From positions 1 to 39,785 of the forward strand of contig JAKMEV010000241.1 in NCBI GenBank assembly GCA_022425785.1: DNA of 39,785 nucleotides, written 5' to 3'. The stretch comes from Akkermansiaceae bacterium (GTDB taxonomy: Bacteria > Verrucomicrobiota > Verrucomicrobiia > Verrucomicrobiales > Akkermansiaceae). This document shows positions 22,380-36,056 of the stretch, piece by piece. Positions within the stretch are counted from its first letter, which is position 1; each line of letters opens with the position of its first letter. Made by a program: the position numbers and the translations under genes. Under the pieces are notes generated by a model, which was given only the letters and a program-made list of their open reading frames with translations, was not told the DNA's origin and did not search any database.

Positions 22380-24491
22380 TCATGAATTCTCCATCTCCCG
22401 CAACTTCTCCCATTCATCAATCAAGCTGGAATCAATCTGCCTGATCATCCCGCTCAGAAATTCTTCGGCTTCGGCGACCTCTTCGGTCTTCGCTATCGGG
22501 GGAACGGTTTGCACCAGGACTTTGTAGACCTCCGACAGGTGACGCAGCAGCACAGCTTCGCTTCGTTCGAGTTGATACGACTTCACGTAATCTTCGAAGG
22601 AAGTCCAGTCTTCCACCATTTCCCGCACGATCGATTTCGGCCGTACTCCCGCTTCCTTGGCCCAAGGGTTTGCCAAAACAAACTCATTGTAGGTTGCGTA
22701 GATAAAATCCTTCCCGGGCTTCGGATGCTCGACCTCTTCCAGAGCCTCCAGCCGATCCTCGTAATCCATCCCCTCTTCTTTCAACTGCGCCATCAGGGCC
22801 GTCTTGATTTTATCGGTTTGCTTGCGAAGCACCGCAGTGGGATCCTCGACAATTGCTTCAATCAACGAGAGTATGTTCAGGACGTATTTCGGATCCTCGG
22901 GATCAAGTTTTAAAACAGTCTCGATCAAGTAAAGCCCAAGGGCCTGGTTCATCGTGAAATCGTCCTGCAGTTCGACATTCAACTCCACCTTGGCTGGTCC
23001 AGTGCGTTCCTCTTTTGGAATAATCGTAAGCACTTTTCCTTCGACCAGTCCCTTGAAAAGCGCAAAGGCTTTCTTCTGCAATCCTTTCTTCTTCACCGGC
23101 GTTTCATGACACACCCTGATCAGTCGCCTCAACTCGGCACAACCGTCTTCATGTTCACGTGAAAGCACATTAAGCAAAGTGCCATGCCGGAGATTAAAAC
23201 TCGACGTGAGCTTCTCCGGCGGTGCGGTCTGTAATTTAAGAAAGGTTTTCTCATCCCAATTCACAAACCCCTTCTCCGGCGGACGCTTCTTTTGAGCCTT
23301 GCTCTTCTTCCCCTTCGCCGCCGCCTTTTCCTCGGCTTTGATATTCTCAATGACATATTCCGGAGCCTGCGCCACGACGTATCCTATCTCGTCAAAGCCC
23401 CGCCTCCCGGCTCGCCCGCTGATCTGACGAAAGTCACGCACCGCGAGGATCTTGGTAATCTGCCCACCGTATTTGAAAAGCTGGGTGAACAGAACAGTCG
23501 TGATGGGAACATTCACTCCCACGCCCAAAGTATCCGTTCCGCAGATCACCTTCAACAATCCGCGCTGCGCCAACTTCTCAACCAGCACACGATACTTCGG
23601 CAAGAGTCCGGCATGGTGAATTCCCAGGCCGTGCCGAAGGAGTTTCTTGACCTCCTTACCATAAGGACTTTTGAAATCGGCATCTTCCAACACCTTGGCA
23701 ATTTCCGCTTTTTCGCCCTTGGTACAAAAATTACGACTCATCAAATTCTGCGCCGTCCGCGCACAGGCCAGTTGCGTGAAATGGACGAGGTAAATCGGCG
23801 CCCGCCCGGACTCCACGAGCTCTTCCACTTTGTCCTCCAGCGCCGTCGTGCTGTATTCGAACTCCAAAGGCACTGGCCGGTCCTCCGACTTCACCAAAAC
23901 TGTTTCCGCTCCGGTGAGGTCCGTGATTTCCCTCTGAAAAAACTCAGTCTCTCCCAGAGTCGCCGACATTAACAAAAATCGCGCCTGTGGCATTGTCAGC
24001 AATGGCACCTGCCATGCTACCCCACGTTCATGATCGGAATAGTAATGAAACTCGTCCATGATCACCTCATCGACCTGGGCCCTCGATCCTTCACGGAGCG
24101 CCAGGTTCGAGAGAATCTCCGCAGTACAGCATATCACCGGCGCCCCGGCATTCACGGTGGCATCGCCGGTGATCATGCCAACATTGTCCGCGCCGAAAGT
24201 TTCACAAAGCGAGAGAAACTTCTCATTTGCCAGGGCCTTGATTGGCACGGTGTAAAAAGATCGCCGCTTTTGGCAAATGGCGCGAAAGTGCAAAGCCAGC
24301 GCCACGAGGGATTTTCCCGAACCGGTCGGCGTATTGAGAATAACATTCTTCCCTTCGAACAATTCCAGGATCGCCTCTTCCTGATGATCATAGGGTTCAA
24401 TCCCCGCCTCAATAAGATACTCCAGAAAGGCATCCAAGACCTCGCTACTATCAGAGGGATCGGAGATGACACCGGGATCGAGATCAGCCAT
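22380..24491 (-). CDS. Ski2-like DEAD/DEAH-box helicase with a DUF3516-like C-terminal region
   Basis: Walker [11 protein letters not shown], motif [12 protein letters not shown] (MSATLG) and motif [12 protein letters not shown], followed by a long helical C-terminal extension. Confidence 0.85.
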
Positions 24492-27378: not shown

Positions 27379-28113
27379 TCATTGCCCTCGTTGAATCTTC
27401 AACATTTCCTCCGCGTATCGCTCACCAAGAATCTTCATACTTTTGGCATCGAAATGCCACCGGTCCATCGCCGTCAGGCCCTCCGATTTGACCACTCCGG
27501 TGTGGGAAACTTTCGATGATAGCTTCGCGATTTGATCATTCACCTCCTTGGCATTGTTCACCTGACCCGCGACAAAAGGCAGCTTGGGCAACTCCAAATC
27601 CTTGCGCAAATTTTTCACCAGCTCTCTCAACTTGTCGAGATACTCGGGGTCCTTGTGATCGGTCTCACCCTGATGCCAAAGCACCCCTTTGAGCTCTCCT
27701 TTTTCCATCGCCGCCTTCATCCGCCGAAGAGCCTCTTGATAAAATTTAGCGTCACGCGTCCACTGCTTGATACTCGATCCTCCTTTGGCATTCACCACGA
27801 GACCAATCGTCATCTTGGAATCCTCTTTAAGCATCGCTTTTGAAAATGAATAGCCCGGATTCATCTTCTGCATGTTCAACCCTTTCCGAATTGTAGAGTA
27901 TCGATTGAGGGGATTTTTTGCAGGCTCGAATTCGTCTTCACCATTTAAAAGAAAACACCTCTCGATGACTCCTTCATCCTTTTTCGCAATCGGCGCACGG
28001 CCCGCCATGTTTGACTGGCCGATGAGCAGATAGAGACCCATTTTCTCTTCCGCCACTGAAAGTGAAGCACTACTCATCACGAACCCGATCAGGAGGAAAA
28101 ATTTCTTAGGCAT
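27379..28113 (-). CDS. SASA-family carbohydrate esterase (sialate O-acetylesterase-like, DUF303)
   Basis: I place the start at ATG 28113, preceded by AGGAGG, with a signal peptide. It carries GQSNMAGRA (the catalytic Ser block) and WHQGETD. Confidence 0.85.
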   Translation of the reverse strand: MPKKFFLLIGFVMSSASLSVAEEKMGLYLLIGQSNMAGRAPIAKKDEGVIERCFLLNGEDEFEPAKNPLNRYSTIRKGLNMQKMNPGYSFSKAMLKEDSKMTIGLVVNAKGGSSIKQWTRDAKFYQEALRRMKAAMEKGELKGVLWHQGETDHKDPEYLDKLRELVKNLRKDLELPKLPFVAGQVNNAKEVNDQIAKLSSKVSHTGVVKSEGLTAMDRWHFDAKSMKILGERYAEEMLKIQRGQ

Positions 28114-28192
28114 GATTCCTCCTATCGAATTTAAACCCGTAATCCAATCAGATTGCAGTTGCCCCTTCATTTCTCTCTCCTAAATTCCCCGC

Positions 28193-28549
28193 ATGTCCCA
28201 AGTCACGATCTACCATTTCAATCATTGAGGCTCTTCTGACAATGCCCTGGCGGTCGCCAAGGAACTGGGAGTTGATCACAAAGTCATCGTCTACATTAAA
28301 ACACCACCGGGCGAAGCCGAGCTCACCAAAATCGTGGAGGCGCTTGAGGACCCCGTCGCAGATCTCGTGCGCAAAGATTCGAAATTCAAGAAACTCGAAC
28401 TCAATCCCGACGACTACGTCGACAATCCGAAGGCCGTGGTGGATATTCTCGTCAAACACAAACAGCTCCTCCAGCGCCCGGTTTTAATCAAAGGAAAGAA
28501 AGCCATCATCGGCCGCCCGAAAGCCCGGATTTACGACTTTTTGTCCTGA
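28193..28549 (+). CDS. ArsC/Spx/YffB-fold reductase (118 aa) with in-frame TGA at 28226-28228 at the catalytic Cys position; predicted selenoprotein
   Basis: ATG 28193 is in frame with track ORF 28334..28549, and TGA is the only interruption. The translation is MSQVTIYHFNH-U-GSSDNALAVAKELGVDHKVIVYIKTPPGEAELTKIVEAL..LLQRPVLIKGKKAIIGRPKARIYDFLS. Its N-terminus aligns with the R773 ArsC motif IYHNPACGTSRN, placing U on Cys12. The C-terminus matches the ILINRPIV..RLCRP pattern. Confidence 0.75.
28229..28272 (+). promoter_or_regulatory. Candidate bacterial SECIS element
   Basis: The upper stem pairs cctggc (28246-28251) with gccaagg (28256-28262; 6 bp, one bulged A) and is capped by loop GGUC (28252-28255). 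A possible lower stem pairs cucuu (28231-35) with gggag (28267-71). The loop begins 23 nt after the UGA, within the usual SECIS distance range. Confidence 0.55.
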
Positions 28550-30206: not shown

Positions 30207-30695
30207 ATGCGATTTCTTCTCCCAATCATCCTCACTTGCCTTTGCGGAAGCCTCCCCGCCAAAGAACGCCTCGTCCTGCTCGCGGGCGGACTAAGCAAAG
30301 AGGGCATCTCCACTCAAGTTCAATCCGTTATCAATATGGTCGACGGTGCCAAGGTCCTACAAATCACTCCAAAGTCCATCGCCATCGAATTCGATCCCGC
30401 CAAGGTGACAGAAGCGTCCCTCAAAAAAAACCTCACCGCTTCCGGCCTCACCATCACCGGCCAAAAAGCTTTCTTCAAAATCAGAGGCCTCGTATGCAGC
30501 AGTTGCTCCAACGTTCTCACCAGCCTTCTCGCCAAGGAAAAAGGTGTCATTTACGTCAACAGCATTTCCCATCTCAACGGACAGGCCGATATTTCTTTCG
30601 ACCCCAAGGAAACCACTCAAACCAAGATCGAAGCAGCGGTGAATACCACTCGTTACAAGGTAGTTAAAACCGTCCCCCCGAAATCCCCATCCTAA
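30207..30695 (+). CDS. Secreted tandem heavy-metal-associated (HMA) domain protein
   Basis: Signal peptide MRFLLPIILTCLCGSLPA. The second domain is a canonical HMA (FFKIRGLVCSSCSNVLTSLL...ADISFDP). The first has the same fold pattern but lacks the CxxC. Confidence 0.7.
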   Translation: MRFLLPIILTCLCGSLPAKERLVLLAGGLSKEGISTQVQSVINMVDGAKVLQITPKSIAIEFDPAKVTEASLKKNLTASGLTITGQKAFFKIRGLVCSSCSNVLTSLLAKEKGVIYVNSISHLNGQADISFDPKETTQTKIEAAVNTTRYKVVKTVPPKSPS

Positions 30696-31473: not shown

Positions 31474-31944
31474 ATGGCCGCCCCAAAAACAGTCGCCGAA
31501 CCTCACAAGGAACTCCGCTTCACCCGCGCCGGACAGGCTCAGGGTATGTTCGTTGGGGCCACCGTGGCCTTCGCCTTTACCCTTCTTATCACCATCACCT
31601 GGTTTATGGGCCACCCGGATTTCCGTTGGTGGATGCCTCTTCCTTTCCTCGTCTTGGCCTGGCTCCTCGCCAGAGTCGCGCTCCATTGCACCCGCCACGC
31701 CTACATCATCCTCACTCCGATGGGTATCGAGATTTTCCCGCTCCTCAAGCCGGAGAAAAATCTCAGTCTGATCTACTGGACCGAACTCGATCACGCTGAT
31801 TTCAACGAAGACCTCACGCTCGCCAAAATCCACCGCGATGCCGAAGAAAGCTCTGGCGCGGTCCTTTCCCTGAAGCCCATCCTCGCAAAACAACGCCCCC
31901 TCCTCAAGAAAGCCCTCGAAGGCCGCCTCGCGGAAAAAGCCTAA
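31474..31944 (+). CDS. Membrane protein, two TM helices plus a bacterial PH-like (YdbS/YdbT-like) domain
   Basis: A TM hairpin (FVGATVAFAFTLLITITWF / WWMPLPFLVLAWLLARVAL) is followed by a ~80-aa soluble domain. Its stop overlaps the selB stop (CTAA, 31941-31944). Confidence 0.55.
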   Translation: MAAPKTVAEPHKELRFTRAGQAQGMFVGATVAFAFTLLITITWFMGHPDFRWWMPLPFLVLAWLLARVALHCTRHAYIILTPMGIEIFPLLKPEKNLSLIYWTELDHADFNEDLTLAKIHRDAEESSGAVLSLKPILAKQRPLLKKALEGRLAEKA

Positions 31945-33884
31945 CCTCGAGGAACCAAAGTCCGATAGTCACCGTTCCGAATGGTGACCCCATCCCGGTC
32001 CAGACGATCCAGCAGCGGCATGATCACCTTTCGTGAGGTATCCAGCTCCTGCCGTAATTCCGAAACCGTGGCCTGCCCGCTCTTCTCGAGGAACGCAATC
32101 ACCTTGGTCACCGTGGCTTGAAACACCCCGGCACTCACGGTCACCTTGGGTTCCAGCGGGATAATCTGTCTCGTGCGCGACAGGAACTTATAGGCCGCCG
32201 TATGCGACGGTGTCCCCTGCAGCTCACCCGGAAGCGGCGGATTCAATCCGGCATTGTCGAGGGTCTTCAAAATCTCCGCCGCCGGCGCTTCCAGCTCGGG
32301 AGGAAGTTCCAGCGAGTGCGAATTGTGGCAGATCAAGTTATCTCCCACTTTGAAATTCTTCTCGCTCAACTGAACCAACAAGGCATCGAGCAGTCCCGGG
32401 ATTCCCATCGGAGCTCCCATACTCTTCTTAAACAACTCCGTCGTCATGCCAATCTGATCCGGATGCTTCTTGTGATATTCCTGCACCAGCTGAGAGCTCT
32501 CTTTGACCAAGCCTTTCCAGTAGGGAGCGAACGAAAGATACTTCTCGCGCAAAGCCACCACCTCATTGGCTTTCGTCATCTTCTTCAGGGCCGCCTTAAT
32601 CCCGGCTGGCGAGAATGGCAGCGCTTGAACCAAGTCTGCTTCAGTCAGGAAATGATCCCGAATCAAATGCGTTCGCAACAAAAGCTGCAAATCATCAGGC
32701 GCGGTCGCCCGCTCGGTCAGGAAAAGCTGTCGGTCCGCGCCCCTGAAATTCCGCCGCGAAGGATGCGTATCAAGAATGGTCCCTCCCGCAATCGTGGCCT
32801 CCCCCGAAAGCTCGCGAATAACAATCCGCTCTCCTACAAAACTATGCACCGGATGATCAAAGCGTAGCTGCGCGATCGTTGACTCGCCGGGATGCAAGGT
32901 ATTCCCCTCCGGAAACAAAACCCGTGCCTGCGTTCTCCCCGATCCATGGTGCACATAGATGCGATGATTCGATTTCAAGGGTCGCAGTGTTCCCTTCTGC
33001 CCCGGAATGGGACGAACCGAACGAATCAACTCCGCATCCACCTCATAAGATGCCTCAGCCAGCGATCCTCCCACGAGAAGATTCCCCCGCGAGACGCCCT
33101 TCTTGCCTTTTGACGTCAGCGGAAGGTCAGGGAGATTGAGCGCCGTCCGCATTCCCGGCATGGCATGATCCACCGACGAGGAATGGTTTTGAATGGCACG
33201 CACACTCGTCTTCAAGCCCGATGGATAGGTAATCAAGGAATCTCCTGTTTTCAACTCCCCACCGGCCAATGTCCCCGTCACCACCGTGCCCACGCCCTTG
33301 GGCGAAAAGGCCCGGTCCACCGCGAGACGAGGCTGGCCGAAGTCCCGGGGTGCCGGCGTTTCGAGGAGGACCTTGGCAATCGTTTCTTTCAAGGTATCCA
33401 TGCCGAGGCCTGTCGGCGCCGACACCGGAATGATGGGCGCCCCCTCCAAAGCAGTTCCCTGAAGATCATCCGCGAGCATCTCGGTCACGAACTCCAAATC
33501 CTCGCAAAGATCCGCCTTGGTCAGGGCAATGATAAAATTGCCGATCCCGAGATAGCTCAAAATCTGTAAGTGCTCCTCCGACTGCGGCATCCACGAATCA
33601 TCCGCCGCCACCACAAAGATCCCCAGGTCAATCGAACCCACGCCCGCGACCATGTTGTTCACGAAGTCGGCGTGCCCCGGGACATCCACCACTCCGAGTT
33701 CGAAGGTATCATCCGATGTCTTGGGCACCGGTAGAGAAAAATGCGCAAAACCCAATTCAATGGTGACCCCACGTTCCTTCTCTTCCGGGAGTCGATCGGG
33801 ATTGGTTCCAGTGAGAGTTTGGACCAAGGTCGACTTTCCGTGGTCGATGTGGCCGGCCGTGCCGATGATATAATTGCGGGACAT
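31941..33884 (-). CDS. selB: Selenocysteine-specific translation elongation factor SelB
   Basis: The N-terminus IIGTAGHIDHGKSTLVQTLTGTNPDRLPEEKERGVTIELGF closely parallels E. coli SelB ([40 protein letters not shown]). It also has DVPGH, ALTKADL and RLAVDRAFSPKGVGTVVTGT. Its 647-aa length includes C-terminal winged-helix domains (SELRQELDTSRKVIMPLLDRLDRDGVT). Confidence 0.93.
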   Translation of the reverse strand: MSRNYIIGTAGHIDHGKSTLVQTLTGTNPDRLPEEKERGVTIELGFAHFSLPVPKTSDDTFELGVVDVPGHADFVNNMVAGVGSIDLGIFVVAADDSWMPQSEEHLQILSYLGIGNFIIALTKADLCEDLEFVTEMLADDLQGTALEGAPIIPVSAPTGLGMDTLKETIAKVLLETPAPRDFGQPRLAVDRAFSPKGVGTVVTGTLAGGELKTGDSLITYPSGLKTSVRAIQNHSSSVDHAMPGMRTALNLPDLPLTSKGKKGVSRGNLLVGGSLAEASYEVDAELIRSVRPIPGQKGTLRPLKSNHRIYVHHGSGRTQARVLFPEGNTLHPGESTIAQLRFDHPVHSFVGERIVIRELSGEATIAGGTILDTHPSRRNFRGADRQLFLTERATAPDDLQLLLRTHLIRDHFLTEADLVQALPFSPAGIKAALKKMTKANEVVALREKYLSFAPYWKGLVKESSQLVQEYHKKHPDQIGMTTELFKKSMGAPMGIPGLLDALLVQLSEKNFKVGDNLICHNSHSLELPPELEAPAAEILKTLDNAGLNPPLPGELQGTPSHTAAYKFLSRTRQIIPLEPKVTVSAGVFQATVTKVIAFLEKSGQATVSELRQELDTSRKVIMPLLDRLDRDGVTIRNGDYRTLVPRG

Positions 33885-34318: not shown

Positions 34319-35992
34319 TTACCAGGGAAGTGGGAAATCCCCGTTGAAGGCAAAAACCTTCTCGCGGATTTTTGCTAGCTGGGTTTCATCCTCACGCGCC
34401 TGGAGCGCTTCGTGAATGAGATCCGCTACCGCGATGACATCGTCTTCCTTCATGCCACGGGTGGTGACGGCTGGAGTTCCGATGCGGATACCGCTGGGCT
34501 TCATGGGGCCGGCTTCGTCGAAAGGAATAGAGTTCTTGTTCACCGTGATGCCCACCTTGTCGAGGGTGTCGGAAACGATGGAACCGTCGAGCCCCACCGG
34601 GCGAAGATCAACCATGAAGACATGGTTGTCGGTGCCGCCGGAAACGATGCGGTAACCATTTTCCGCAAGACGCGCAGACATGGCCTGAGCGTTCTTAACG
34701 ACCTGTGCTTGATACTCCTTGAAGCCGGGCTTGAGAGCCTCACCAAAACAAACCGCCTTGGCTGCGATGACGTGCATAAGCGGGCCACCTTGCACTCCGG
34801 GGAAAACGCGACCGTCGATCTTCTTGGCGTATTTCTCTTTGCAAAGAATGATACCACCACGAGGACCACGAAGTGATTTGTGGGTTGTGGTCGTCACGAA
34901 ATCAGCATGCGGCACCGGGCTGGGATGCACTCCGGCAGCGACAAGTCCGGCGATGTGTGCCATGTCGACGAAGAGATACGCTCCCACCGCTTCGGCAATC
35001 TTTCCCATGCGTTCAAAATCGATCGTCCGGGAATAAGCACTCGCCCCGCAGGTAATCAGCTTTGGCTGCACTTCCTTGGCCTGAATTTCGAGCGCATCGT
35101 AATCAATTGCCTCATCCTCTGCACTCACACCATAGTGCGTAACATCGTAAAGCCGACCCGAGAAGTTGGCCGGATGTCCGTGCGTGAGGTGACCACCATG
35201 CGCAAGGTCCATGGTGAGGATCTTGTCGCCAGGCTGAAGCACTGCGAAATAAACCGCCGTGTTGGCCTGACTTCCGGAGTGAGGCTGCACGTTGGCGTGG
35301 TCCGCTCCATAAATTTCCTTGAGTCGGCTGATCGCAAGTTCTTCGACGACGTCGACATTTTCACATCCGCCATACCAACGACGCCCGGGATAGCCCTCGG
35401 CATACTTGTTGGTAAGAAGCGAACCCTGAGCCTCCATGACTGCCGGGCTGCAAAAGTTTTCCGAAGCAATCAACTCGATGTGACTGCGCTGACGTTTTTC
35501 CTCGCCGCGAATCGCGTCGAAGACTTCCGTATCCGTCATCGCGAGACGACTTCCCGAGGCCTTGCAAAGCCGCGCGTCGTGACGCCCACCTTCATAATCG
35601 CTGGACAGGAAGGCCTCCACCATTTCGAGAGCGGTTTCAGCCGACACCACGGTCTGGCCGAGGCAGAGCACATTGGCATCATTGTGTGAGCGGGGCGGCT
35701 TGGTCTCTTCGACGGTGCGAACGTTGGCTGCCCGGACATCACGAAAACGATTTGCGGCGAGGCAAACTCCCACGCCCGAGGTGCAGACAAGGATTCCCCG
35801 GTCGCTGCGATCTTCATGAACGGCCCGTCCCACCTCATGGGCAAAGTCTGGGTAATCGACCGAATCCATCCCCTGCGTGCCGTAATCAATCACCTCATGG
35901 GCGGTGCTTTTCAGCGCCTCCACGATCGCGTTTTTCAATTCAACTCCGCCGTGATCGGCTCCAACTGCAATGCGGTAAGACTCAGCACTCAT
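34319..35992 (-). CDS. glyA: Fused ribose-5-phosphate isomerase B (RpiB/LacAB) and serine hydroxymethyltransferase (GlyA)
   Basis: Residues ~8-152 are RpiB ([11 protein letters not shown]...[16 protein letters not shown]...NDANVLCLG...GGRH). From internal Met 35539 onward the sequence is canonical SHMT (ELIASENF.., [29 protein letters not shown]). There is one continuous frame with no stop. I prefer the start at ATG 35992 over 36013. Confidence 0.88.
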
Positions 35993-36056
35993 AAGGACGC
36001 CCCTTCCCTGCATCCTCGAAGGACAAATGGCAAGCGCTCACTGAGAAAAGAGAGCC

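Follow-up and report, generated by a model that had tools for sequence, protein, structure and literature searches.

A predicted ArsC-family selenoprotein with selenocysteine at the catalytic cysteine position in an Akkermansiaceae bacterium

The locus and its reading frame

The DNA analyzed here, referred to throughout as the window, comprises 39,785 nucleotides (nt) from an Akkermansiaceae bacterium of the Verrucomicrobiota (contig JAKMEV010000241.1 of assembly GCA_022425785.1), and between a sialate-O-acetylesterase-like (SASA) gene and a sulfatase gene it carries a stand-alone cistron at 28193-28549 on the plus strand that is the subject of this report. Translation of this locus gives a single frame of 118 codons in which the sole internal stop is a TGA at 28226-28228. 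The product reads MSQVTIYHFNH, the TGA, GSSDNALAVAKELG and onward to RIYDFLS and the terminal stop, with GSSDN following the internal TGA. The initial annotation of the window had stated that this frame is open from the ATG at 28193 save for the one TGA, and that the program-made list of open reading frames (ORFs) contains for this locus only a 71-residue fragment (28334..28549), and both statements are confirmed, the coordinates being exactly as claimed and the fragment having a GTG start. We propose, with a probability of about 90%, that 28193-28549 encodes a selenoprotein of the ArsC family, dependent on a selenocysteine insertion sequence (SECIS), in which selenocysteine (Sec, U) takes the place of the catalytic cysteine. 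The proposal draws on the frame and its family match, an alignment column of Cys and Sec, a TGA that is conserved clade-wide, a hairpin with RNA-level constraint and covariation, the use of TGA as an ordinary stop and an intact selB, and it is from these features of the sequence that Sec is predicted to be inserted at codon 12.

The features on which the argument depends are given below, where counts out of 81 refer to the window together with 80 orthologous loci.

28193-28549, plus strand: predicted ArsC-family selenoprotein coding sequence, 118 residues, with ATG at 28193, Sec-UGA as codon 12 and the true stop UGA at 28547-28549.
28214-28216, plus strand: codon of His8, upstream of the UGA; His in 81/81 sequences, with CAC and CAT both used.
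28226-28228, plus strand: predicted Sec-UGA (Sec12); TGA in 81/81 sequences, aligned with the catalytic Cys12 of glutaredoxin-coupled ArsC and forming U-x-x-S with the GSS that follows.
28245-28262, plus strand: predicted core hairpin of a bacterial SECIS, with the 5' arm at 28245-28251, a GGUC loop at 28252-28255 and the 3' arm at 28256-28262.
28229-28273, plus strand: possible lower stem that would extend the SECIS (28229-28235 pairing with 28267-28273), weakly supported and perhaps incidental.
28370-28372, plus strand: codon of Arg60, the first of the ArsC arginine triad; Arg in 81/81 sequences and invariant in comparison with Cys-form homologues and E. coli ArsC.
28475-28477, plus strand: codon of Arg95, equivalent to ArsC Arg94; Arg95 and Pro96 in 81/81 sequences and invariant in the alignment with Cys-form homologues.
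28514-28516, plus strand: codon of Arg108, equivalent to ArsC Arg107; Arg108 and Pro109 in 81/81 sequences and invariant in the same alignment.
31941-33884, minus strand: selB, the selenocysteine-specific elongation factor; intact, TIGR00475 at 291.6 bits against a cutoff of 242.25.

Conservation of the in-frame TGA

Orthologues were collected by tblastn with one genome per species of the Genome Taxonomy Database (GTDB), and 80 loci matched over residues 1-118, that is, across the TGA. Codon 12 is TGA in all 80 of them (81/81 with the window). Of these loci, 59 are in Verrucomicrobiales/Akkermansiaceae hosts, 20 in Acidimicrobiales and other Actinomycetota and one in a member of the Pirellulaceae, and one relative, NHEN01000138.1 from the marine Verrucomicrobiaceae metagenome-assembled genome TMED86, is 95.7% identical to the window in nucleotides over 16.3 kb. 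There is no Cys form within the clade at 63% identity or more, the closest one being 53% identical, and reversion to Cys is seen in none of the 80 species-level loci, all of which are at least 63% identical.

The initial annotation had itself cautioned that the TGA might be a base-call error, as TGC and TGT are one substitution away from TGA and other base-call problems were suspected in the window. We regard this explanation, according to which the true codon is TGC or TGT and specifies Cys, or the gene is a recent pseudogene and dead, as practically negligible. The caveat is excluded by the presence of the TGA in 80 of 80 independent assemblies from different species in three phyla, among them the relative at 95.7% and others at 94-96% nucleotide identity; the frame is otherwise open and subject to purifying selection, the clade is devoid of Cys forms as described above, and two odd-looking ORFs elsewhere in the window, an RpiB-SHMT fusion and a helicase (see below), are likewise unbroken in independent assemblies. 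A lack of conservation upstream of the TGA had also been named in advance as grounds for rejecting the selenoprotein, and conservation is what we find: all 81 sequences have I6, Y7 and H8, each of them specified by two to three synonymous codons, and such fixed residues with varying codons indicate purifying selection at the protein level upstream of the TGA.

These data bear equally on the possibility that the UGA is a true stop, where translation ends after an upstream peptide of 11 codons and re-initiates near codon 19 or at the GTG at 28334 to yield a protein of 100 or 71 residues. The close homologues in databases come in two forms, either 100-101 residues long and beginning at codon 19, as is the case for most entries, or full-length with W at position 12, and the first of these, like the 71-residue ORF in the program-made list, is what re-initiation would predict. 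Codon 19, however, is not conserved as a start, as it is TTG in 55 sequences, CTG in 18, the window among them, and TTA in 8, a mixture that speaks against any conserved internal start. Moreover, the 11 upstream codons specify, in frame, the first beta strand of ArsC together with His8, and are conserved in amino acids with varying codons, whereas a product from codon 19 would be without the catalytic loop (H8, residue 12 and S15), and the frozen synonymous sites and covarying stem that lie past the UGA (see below) are left unexplained by re-initiation. Hence we consider a true stop at codon 12 to be very unlikely, and return to Sec as the reading of this codon.

The W at position 12 of the full-length database proteins reflects gene calls in which TGA is translated as Trp. 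Not one of the 23 database homologues whose sequence was read is called correctly, with the TTG or CTG of codon 19 being given as Met or Leu, and the lengths and query coverage (85%) of the best 120 database matches (P0001-P0120) fit the same two forms. The truncated forms carry NCBI names such as 'arsenate reductase' and 'ArsC/Spx/MgsR family protein'. In databases the gene is routinely either truncated, with the active site lost, or mistranslated, with Trp at the catalytic position.

The Sec-form gene and a near-identical GGUC hairpin are found in three phyla, namely the Verrucomicrobiota, the Actinomycetota (loci L031, L045, L046, L049, L050, L053, L059, L061, L064, L065, L068-L071, L073 and L076-L080) and the Planctomycetota (the Pirellulaceae locus L051). 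Median amino acid identity between Verrucomicrobiota and Actinomycetota is 75%, not far from the within-phylum medians of 78-80%, and the sequences still cluster by phylum. This distribution suggests, as far as the sequences can indicate, either an old transfer of the gene with its SECIS between phyla or extreme constraint. Mis-binning was considered as a source of the three-phylum spread and rejected, as the Actinomycetota sequences cluster together, the loci differ in GC content and one of them is on a contig of 4.9 Mb.

A covarying hairpin downstream of the UGA

The initial annotation had described a hairpin with a GGUC loop beginning 17 nt past the UGA, and it is indeed present at 28245-28262, with the stem starting at the 17th nt after the UGA and a UGA-to-loop spacing of 23 nt (28229-28251). 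Its significance derives from the comparison of orthologues, by virtue of the TGA in 80/80 loci and the covariation of the stem, and not from thermodynamics alone. The consensus stem has 7 base pairs (bp), and most orthologues have all seven in perfect form. In the alignment of 81 sequences, base pairing holds in 97.2% of the cells that make up the seven stem pairs, and compensatory double changes are present at three of the seven pairs, the changes in the stem being U-A to C-G in eight sequences, C-G to G-C in one, and G-C to A-U in seven, with G-U intermediates in eight. None of 500 shuffles matched the covariation score of the stem, pairing falls to 27-67% if the 3' arm is slid by 1-3 nt, and RNAalifold independently predicts the same helix as 28245-28262. 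A conserved hairpin in the orthologous loci, with compensatory changes, was one of the predictions to be checked, and it is borne out.

Constraint on this segment is also evident outside the pairing itself. All 81 sequences have GGUC in the loop (alignment columns 36-39), and codons 18-24 hardly vary at their synonymous sites, with Ala18 encoded by GCC in 78/81 sequences, Ala20 by GCG in 77/77, Val21 by GTC in 81/81 and Glu23 by GAG in 56/56; four-fold codons outside of the hairpin have an entropy of about 1.7-1.9 bits. The published model of the bacterial SECIS (bSECIS) has an apical loop of 3-9 nt, an upper stem of 4-16 bp, a UGA-to-loop distance of 16-37 nt and a minimum free energy (MFE) of -7.5 kcal/mol or lower, together with a G within the first two loop positions that is usually followed by G or U (PMC13188914). 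With a GGUC loop of 4 nt, a consensus stem of 7 bp, a spacing of 23 nt and, in the window, a 20-nt core whose MFE is -8.1 kcal/mol, the hairpin falls within all four of these ranges, and the MFE of 47-nt stretches is -12.3 kcal/mol in the window and -11.7 to -18.4 kcal/mol in the orthologues. We therefore take 28245-28262 to be the predicted SECIS of this gene. A lower stem (28229-28273) that might extend the element is seen when several orthologues are folded by MFE, but only 81.8% of its cells are paired, and its third-codon positions are unpaired in 19-33 of the 81 sequences.

Protein family and active site

All profile searches with the read-through product were run with Cys substituted for U. 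Residues 7-115 match the Pfam family ArsC (PF03960; E = 1.9e-11, 44.6 bits against a cutoff of 24), and by far the top match in NCBIfam is TIGR00014, 'arsenate reductase (glutaredoxin)', which aligns over model positions 1-114 of 114. Other NCBIfam models score much lower relative to their cutoffs, including NF007456 (63.2 bits versus 242) and the Spx models, which are far below theirs (TIGR01617, 40.3 bits versus 75.05). The closest solved structures are those of the R773/E. coli ArsC (PDB 1i9d and 1jzw; E = 4e-14, residues 1-117), in which Cys12 is aligned with query position 12 (IYHFNH-C-GSSDN versus IYHNPA-C-GTSRN). Two expectations of the initial annotation, that reading through the UGA gives a complete protein of the ArsC fold and that its N-terminus is in register with the ArsC motif with U at Cys12, are thus upheld, the former by PF03960, TIGR00014 and the 1i9d alignment and the latter by the alignments with 1i9d and 1jzw. 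The same is true of the proposed pairing of Cys and Sec in column 12: Cys occupies this column in at least 90% of the distant full-length homologues, and Cys forms reach up to 53% identity to the query.

Two of the database proteins (P0159 and P0177), which are 34-35% identical to the query, have W in the Cys12 column within the motif IYHNPRWGKSR, which hints at further, independent Sec-form lineages of ArsC.

Residues known to distinguish ArsC from its YffB and Spx paralogues are His8, Asn9, Cys12, Ser15, the Arg60/Arg94/Arg107 triad and Pro108, while Lys93 and Asn60 are characteristic of YffB (PMC5593903, PMC3169414). The arginine triad is described as essential to enzymatic function and serves to separate ArsC from YffB (PMC3169414, PMC5593903), and in R773 ArsC it is His8 that brings down the pKa of the catalytic residue (PMC5593903). 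In the Sec-form proteins H8, S15, R60, R95, P96, R108 and P109 are retained in 81/81, as are Q94 and R60, such that the arginine triad is present and the K93/N60 signature of YffB is absent. Cysteine is absent from all 81 proteins, and with neither a second Cys nor a second Sec in the motif UGSS, a CxxC switch of the Spx type is excluded. A single nucleophile fits the mechanism of ArsC, in which a covalent intermediate is resolved by glutathione and glutaredoxin.

Selenocysteine machinery and the use of TGA

The initial annotation had placed a complete selB 3.4 kb from the selenoprotein gene, and this is confirmed by the TIGR00475 match and by the winged-helix domains of SelB, the Pfam domains of the protein being GTP_EFTU, Beta-barrel_SelB, SelB-wing_2 and SelB-wing_3. 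Its presence indicates an organism able to decode Sec. An intact selB that is 94-95% identical is also found in the two closest relatives (L001 and L002) and is absent from the other 78 loci. The proximity of selB to the selenoprotein gene was therefore rejected as a case of conserved synteny.

The presence of selB is relevant to another explanation, in which the UGA is a sense codon reassigned to Trp, or in which a near-cognate tRNA reads it through with no need for SelB or a SECIS. It would account for the full-length database versions with W at position 12, and reassignment of UGA to Trp is described for Verrucomicrobiota and Actinomycetota (PMC13462651). In this organism, though, TGA is a normal terminator, as it ends 8 of the 25 long ORFs in the window, the selenoprotein gene included, and no other long ORF requires TGA read-through; in a scan of the intergenic gaps of the window for other genes split by TGA, the selenoprotein gene was the only credible case. 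Trp at the position of Cys12 would inactivate the enzyme, yet all of the other catalytic residues are invariant, the organism retains an intact selB, and the conserved hairpin fits the SECIS model, which argues against a sense codon. We find this explanation scarcely credible, and SECIS-directed insertion of Sec remains our interpretation of the UGA.

Proposed mechanism and substrate

A scheme for the synthesis and action of the protein can be proposed on this basis. A ribosome arriving at the codon-12 UGA would encounter the hairpin 28245-28262 inside the coding sequence, with its GGUC loop 23 nt past the UGA, and SelB carrying GTP and Sec-tRNASec would bind the hairpin and deliver Sec in place of termination. 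The second UGA (codon 119), which is without such a hairpin, would serve for termination. By homology with ArsC, the selenolate of Sec12 would be activated by His8 and be positioned in an anion pocket made up of Arg60, Arg95 and Arg108, where it would attack an oxyanion, most probably arsenate. The resulting adduct would then be resolved by glutathione and glutaredoxin, a route for which no other Cys is needed and none is available in the protein.

Several observations weigh against our interpretation, and the first of these concern the RNA and the Sec machinery. The hairpin in the window is slightly weakened, having 4 bp, a C.A mismatch (28247/28260) and then 2 bp, and unusual stability of the single-sequence fold was not found, with z = 0.15 for a 65-nt stretch and z = -1.1 for the 20-nt hairpin. 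Rfam, SECIS models included, yielded no family at the gathering threshold over the whole window, and a permissive scan of 28150-28400 returned noise from small nucleolar RNA (snoRNA) models only. ARAGORN detected no tRNA, and so no tRNA-Sec, in the 39.8-kb window, nor was tRNA-Sec found within 10 kb in 46 related loci, where a single tRNA-Leu was the only hit. Neither selA nor selD was found in the Pfam annotation of most of the long ORFs of the window, and we infer the remaining Sec machinery from selB alone. Furthermore, a 2026 review that enters the family under TIGR00014/UxxS makes the point that nearly all such selenoproteins are known from bioinformatics only (PMC13188914).

The other unfavorable observations concern the assignment as an arsenate reductase. 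The TIGR00014 score of 83.6 bits is below the equivalog cutoff of 106.05. Only 20 of the 81 sequences have Asn9, the window protein having Phe instead, and position 16, the Arg of the HX3CX3R motif, varies between K, T, D, R, E, V, Q and N, with Asp in the window protein. At 118 versus 141 residues, the window protein also lacks a C-terminal segment of ~24 residues that E. coli ArsC possesses. No ars genes flank the gene in the window, and no cluster of potential partners is kept in more than 14 of the 81 neighborhoods, as judged from ORFs within 6 kb that were clustered and not individually annotated. All of these points, among them the lack of an ars operon or conserved neighbor in the 80 loci, favor the alternative that the gene encodes a genuine selenoprotein that is not an arsenate reductase but a glutathione-dependent reductase of the ArsC fold acting on a different substrate, as has been proposed for paralogues of the YffB/YfgD type, and the ArsC fold is known to host functions unrelated to arsenate (PMC3169414, PMC5593903). 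This alternative must contend with the invariance of the R60/R94/R107 triad, H8 and S15 in 81/81 sequences, with the absence of the YffB signature K93/N60, with closest solved structures that are bona fide ArsC and with TIGR00014 as by far the top NCBIfam match. We see it as possible but unlikely, and on the strength of the active-site homology arsenate is probably the physiological substrate.

The observations can also be combined into a broader and rather speculative view, to which we assign low weight, in which the clade is obligately Sec-dependent, its members are stand-alone housekeeping reductases of marine heterotrophs as opposed to enzymes of classical arsenic resistance, and the gene together with its near-invariant SECIS has moved between phyla. 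Their substrate would then be arsenate that enters the cell accidentally when phosphate is scarce, or some other oxyanion or thiol adduct. If such a view were true, the SelB proteins of Verrucomicrobiota, Actinomycetota and Planctomycetota would all read the same GGUC hairpin.

Relation to known systems

That ArsC-like proteins had been predicted as selenoproteins in marine surveys was stated in the initial annotation, and the literature bears this out. 'Arsenate reductase' with the motif UxxS was among the new selenoprotein families reported from the Sargasso Sea in 2005 by Zhang, Fomenko & Gladyshev, with 14 sequences, assignment to COG1393 and a figure of the predicted SECIS (PMC1088965), and the Global Ocean Sampling (GOS) study of 2008 listed 'ArsC 1' (pfam03960, UxxS) with 77 Sec sequences in 23 samples versus 784 Cys homologues (PMC2398784). 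Matched on its published description, the UxxS family has in common with the window gene the PF03960/COG1393 assignment, U12-G-S-S15, Sec at the catalytic Cys position, a marine source and a SECIS-like hairpin directly past the UGA with G in the apical loop. The window gene is a member of this family and differs from it in nothing essential. The family has thus had a place in the literature and in catalogues for ~20 years, as one that is predicted but experimentally uncharacterized, and the known range of selenoprotein kinds is unchanged by our finding. What our analysis adds are the hosts, which are marine Verrucomicrobiales, Acidimicrobiales and one member of the Pirellulaceae, as well as the clade-wide fixation of Sec, the absence of Cys from all 81 proteins, the covariation support for the SECIS and the evidence of misannotation. 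It places a Sec-dependent ArsC-type enzyme in the abundant marine Verrucomicrobiales and Acidimicrobiales, and the alignment of 81 UGA and SECIS sequences could seed a covariance or hidden Markov model (HMM) rule for the repair of annotations.

The R773/E. coli ArsC resembles the window protein from end to end, with His8, residue 12, Ser15, Arg60, Arg94 and Arg107-Pro108 in register and a single catalytic chalcogen residue in both. The two are ~29% identical, and the window protein differs in having Sec for Cys12, Phe for Asn9, Asp for Arg16 and Gly for Cys106, and in being encoded outside an ars operon. YffB and Spx share with the window protein the thioredoxin-like ArsC fold and a length of about 116-131 residues. 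YffB has K93/N60 and no arginine triad, whereas the window protein has the full triad and no K93/N60, and Spx has a CxxC disulfide switch, whereas the window protein contains no Cys.

The initial annotation had given GGUC as the loop of the E. coli fdhF SECIS, and this is correct, as the fdhF SECIS sequence containing it is 100% identical to fdhF in 5,419 E. coli genomes. The fdhF element and the window hairpin are alike in their position within the coding sequence past the UGA, in a GGUC with the G-U that is recognized by SelB and in a stem of 6-8 bp. They differ in that the loop G-U is at +28/+29 from the U of the UGA in the window and at +23/+24 in fdhF, a difference of 5 nt, and in that GGUC is a closed tetraloop in the window but part of A-GGUC-U in fdhF. 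In addition, the consensus stem has no counterpart to the bulged U17 of fdhF, which is a site of SelB binding in E. coli and whose mutation abolishes UGA read-through. A cross-phylum SECIS of such simplicity (7-bp stem, GGUC tetraloop and no bulged U) would be useful in studies of SelB specificity and for engineering.

Genomic neighborhood and other genes in the window

Neither an obvious Shine-Dalgarno sequence nor a match resembling a sigma-70 promoter is seen upstream of the selenoprotein gene. The divergent SASA-family esterase (27379-28170, minus strand) has an internal Met at residue 20 (MPKKFFLLIGF..., resembling a signal peptide) with an AGGAGG ahead of it at 28114-28125, and its true start is probably at 28113, in which case the spacer to the selenoprotein gene is ~79 nt and not 22 nt. 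An antisense ORF of 103 residues (28148-28459, minus strand) lies over the selenoprotein gene and has similar ORFs in 18 loci, and it is most likely a by-product of conservation on the sense strand and not a gene. The one ORF cluster in the neighborhood comparison that exceeds 14 loci was considered as an operon partner and rejected, as it consists of this kind of antisense artefact overlapping the selenoprotein gene itself.

Further from the locus, a 564-residue ORF at 34319-36013 (minus strand) has ribose-5-phosphate isomerase B (RpiB; residues 15-150) fused to a full serine hydroxymethyltransferase (SHMT; residues 158-533). Two independent assemblies, L001 and L002, have the fusion unbroken and at 97% identity, which shows that it is not a base-call artefact of the window. 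A DEAD-box helicase at 22380-24491 (minus strand) has a DUF3516 domain that covers only profile positions 1-324 of 464, ends with a TGA and appears to be C-terminally short, and its occurrence as the same 703-residue protein in both L001 and L002 speaks against a local sequencing error. Two ORFs between the sulfatase gene and selB have no in-frame TGA. The first (30207-30695, plus strand) specifies a secreted-looking protein of 162 residues with a heavy-metal-associated domain and a C-S-S-C motif (GLVCSSCSN), and the second (31474-31944, plus strand), an ORF of 156 residues that has no match in Pfam, is conserved at 64-97% in 16 loci.

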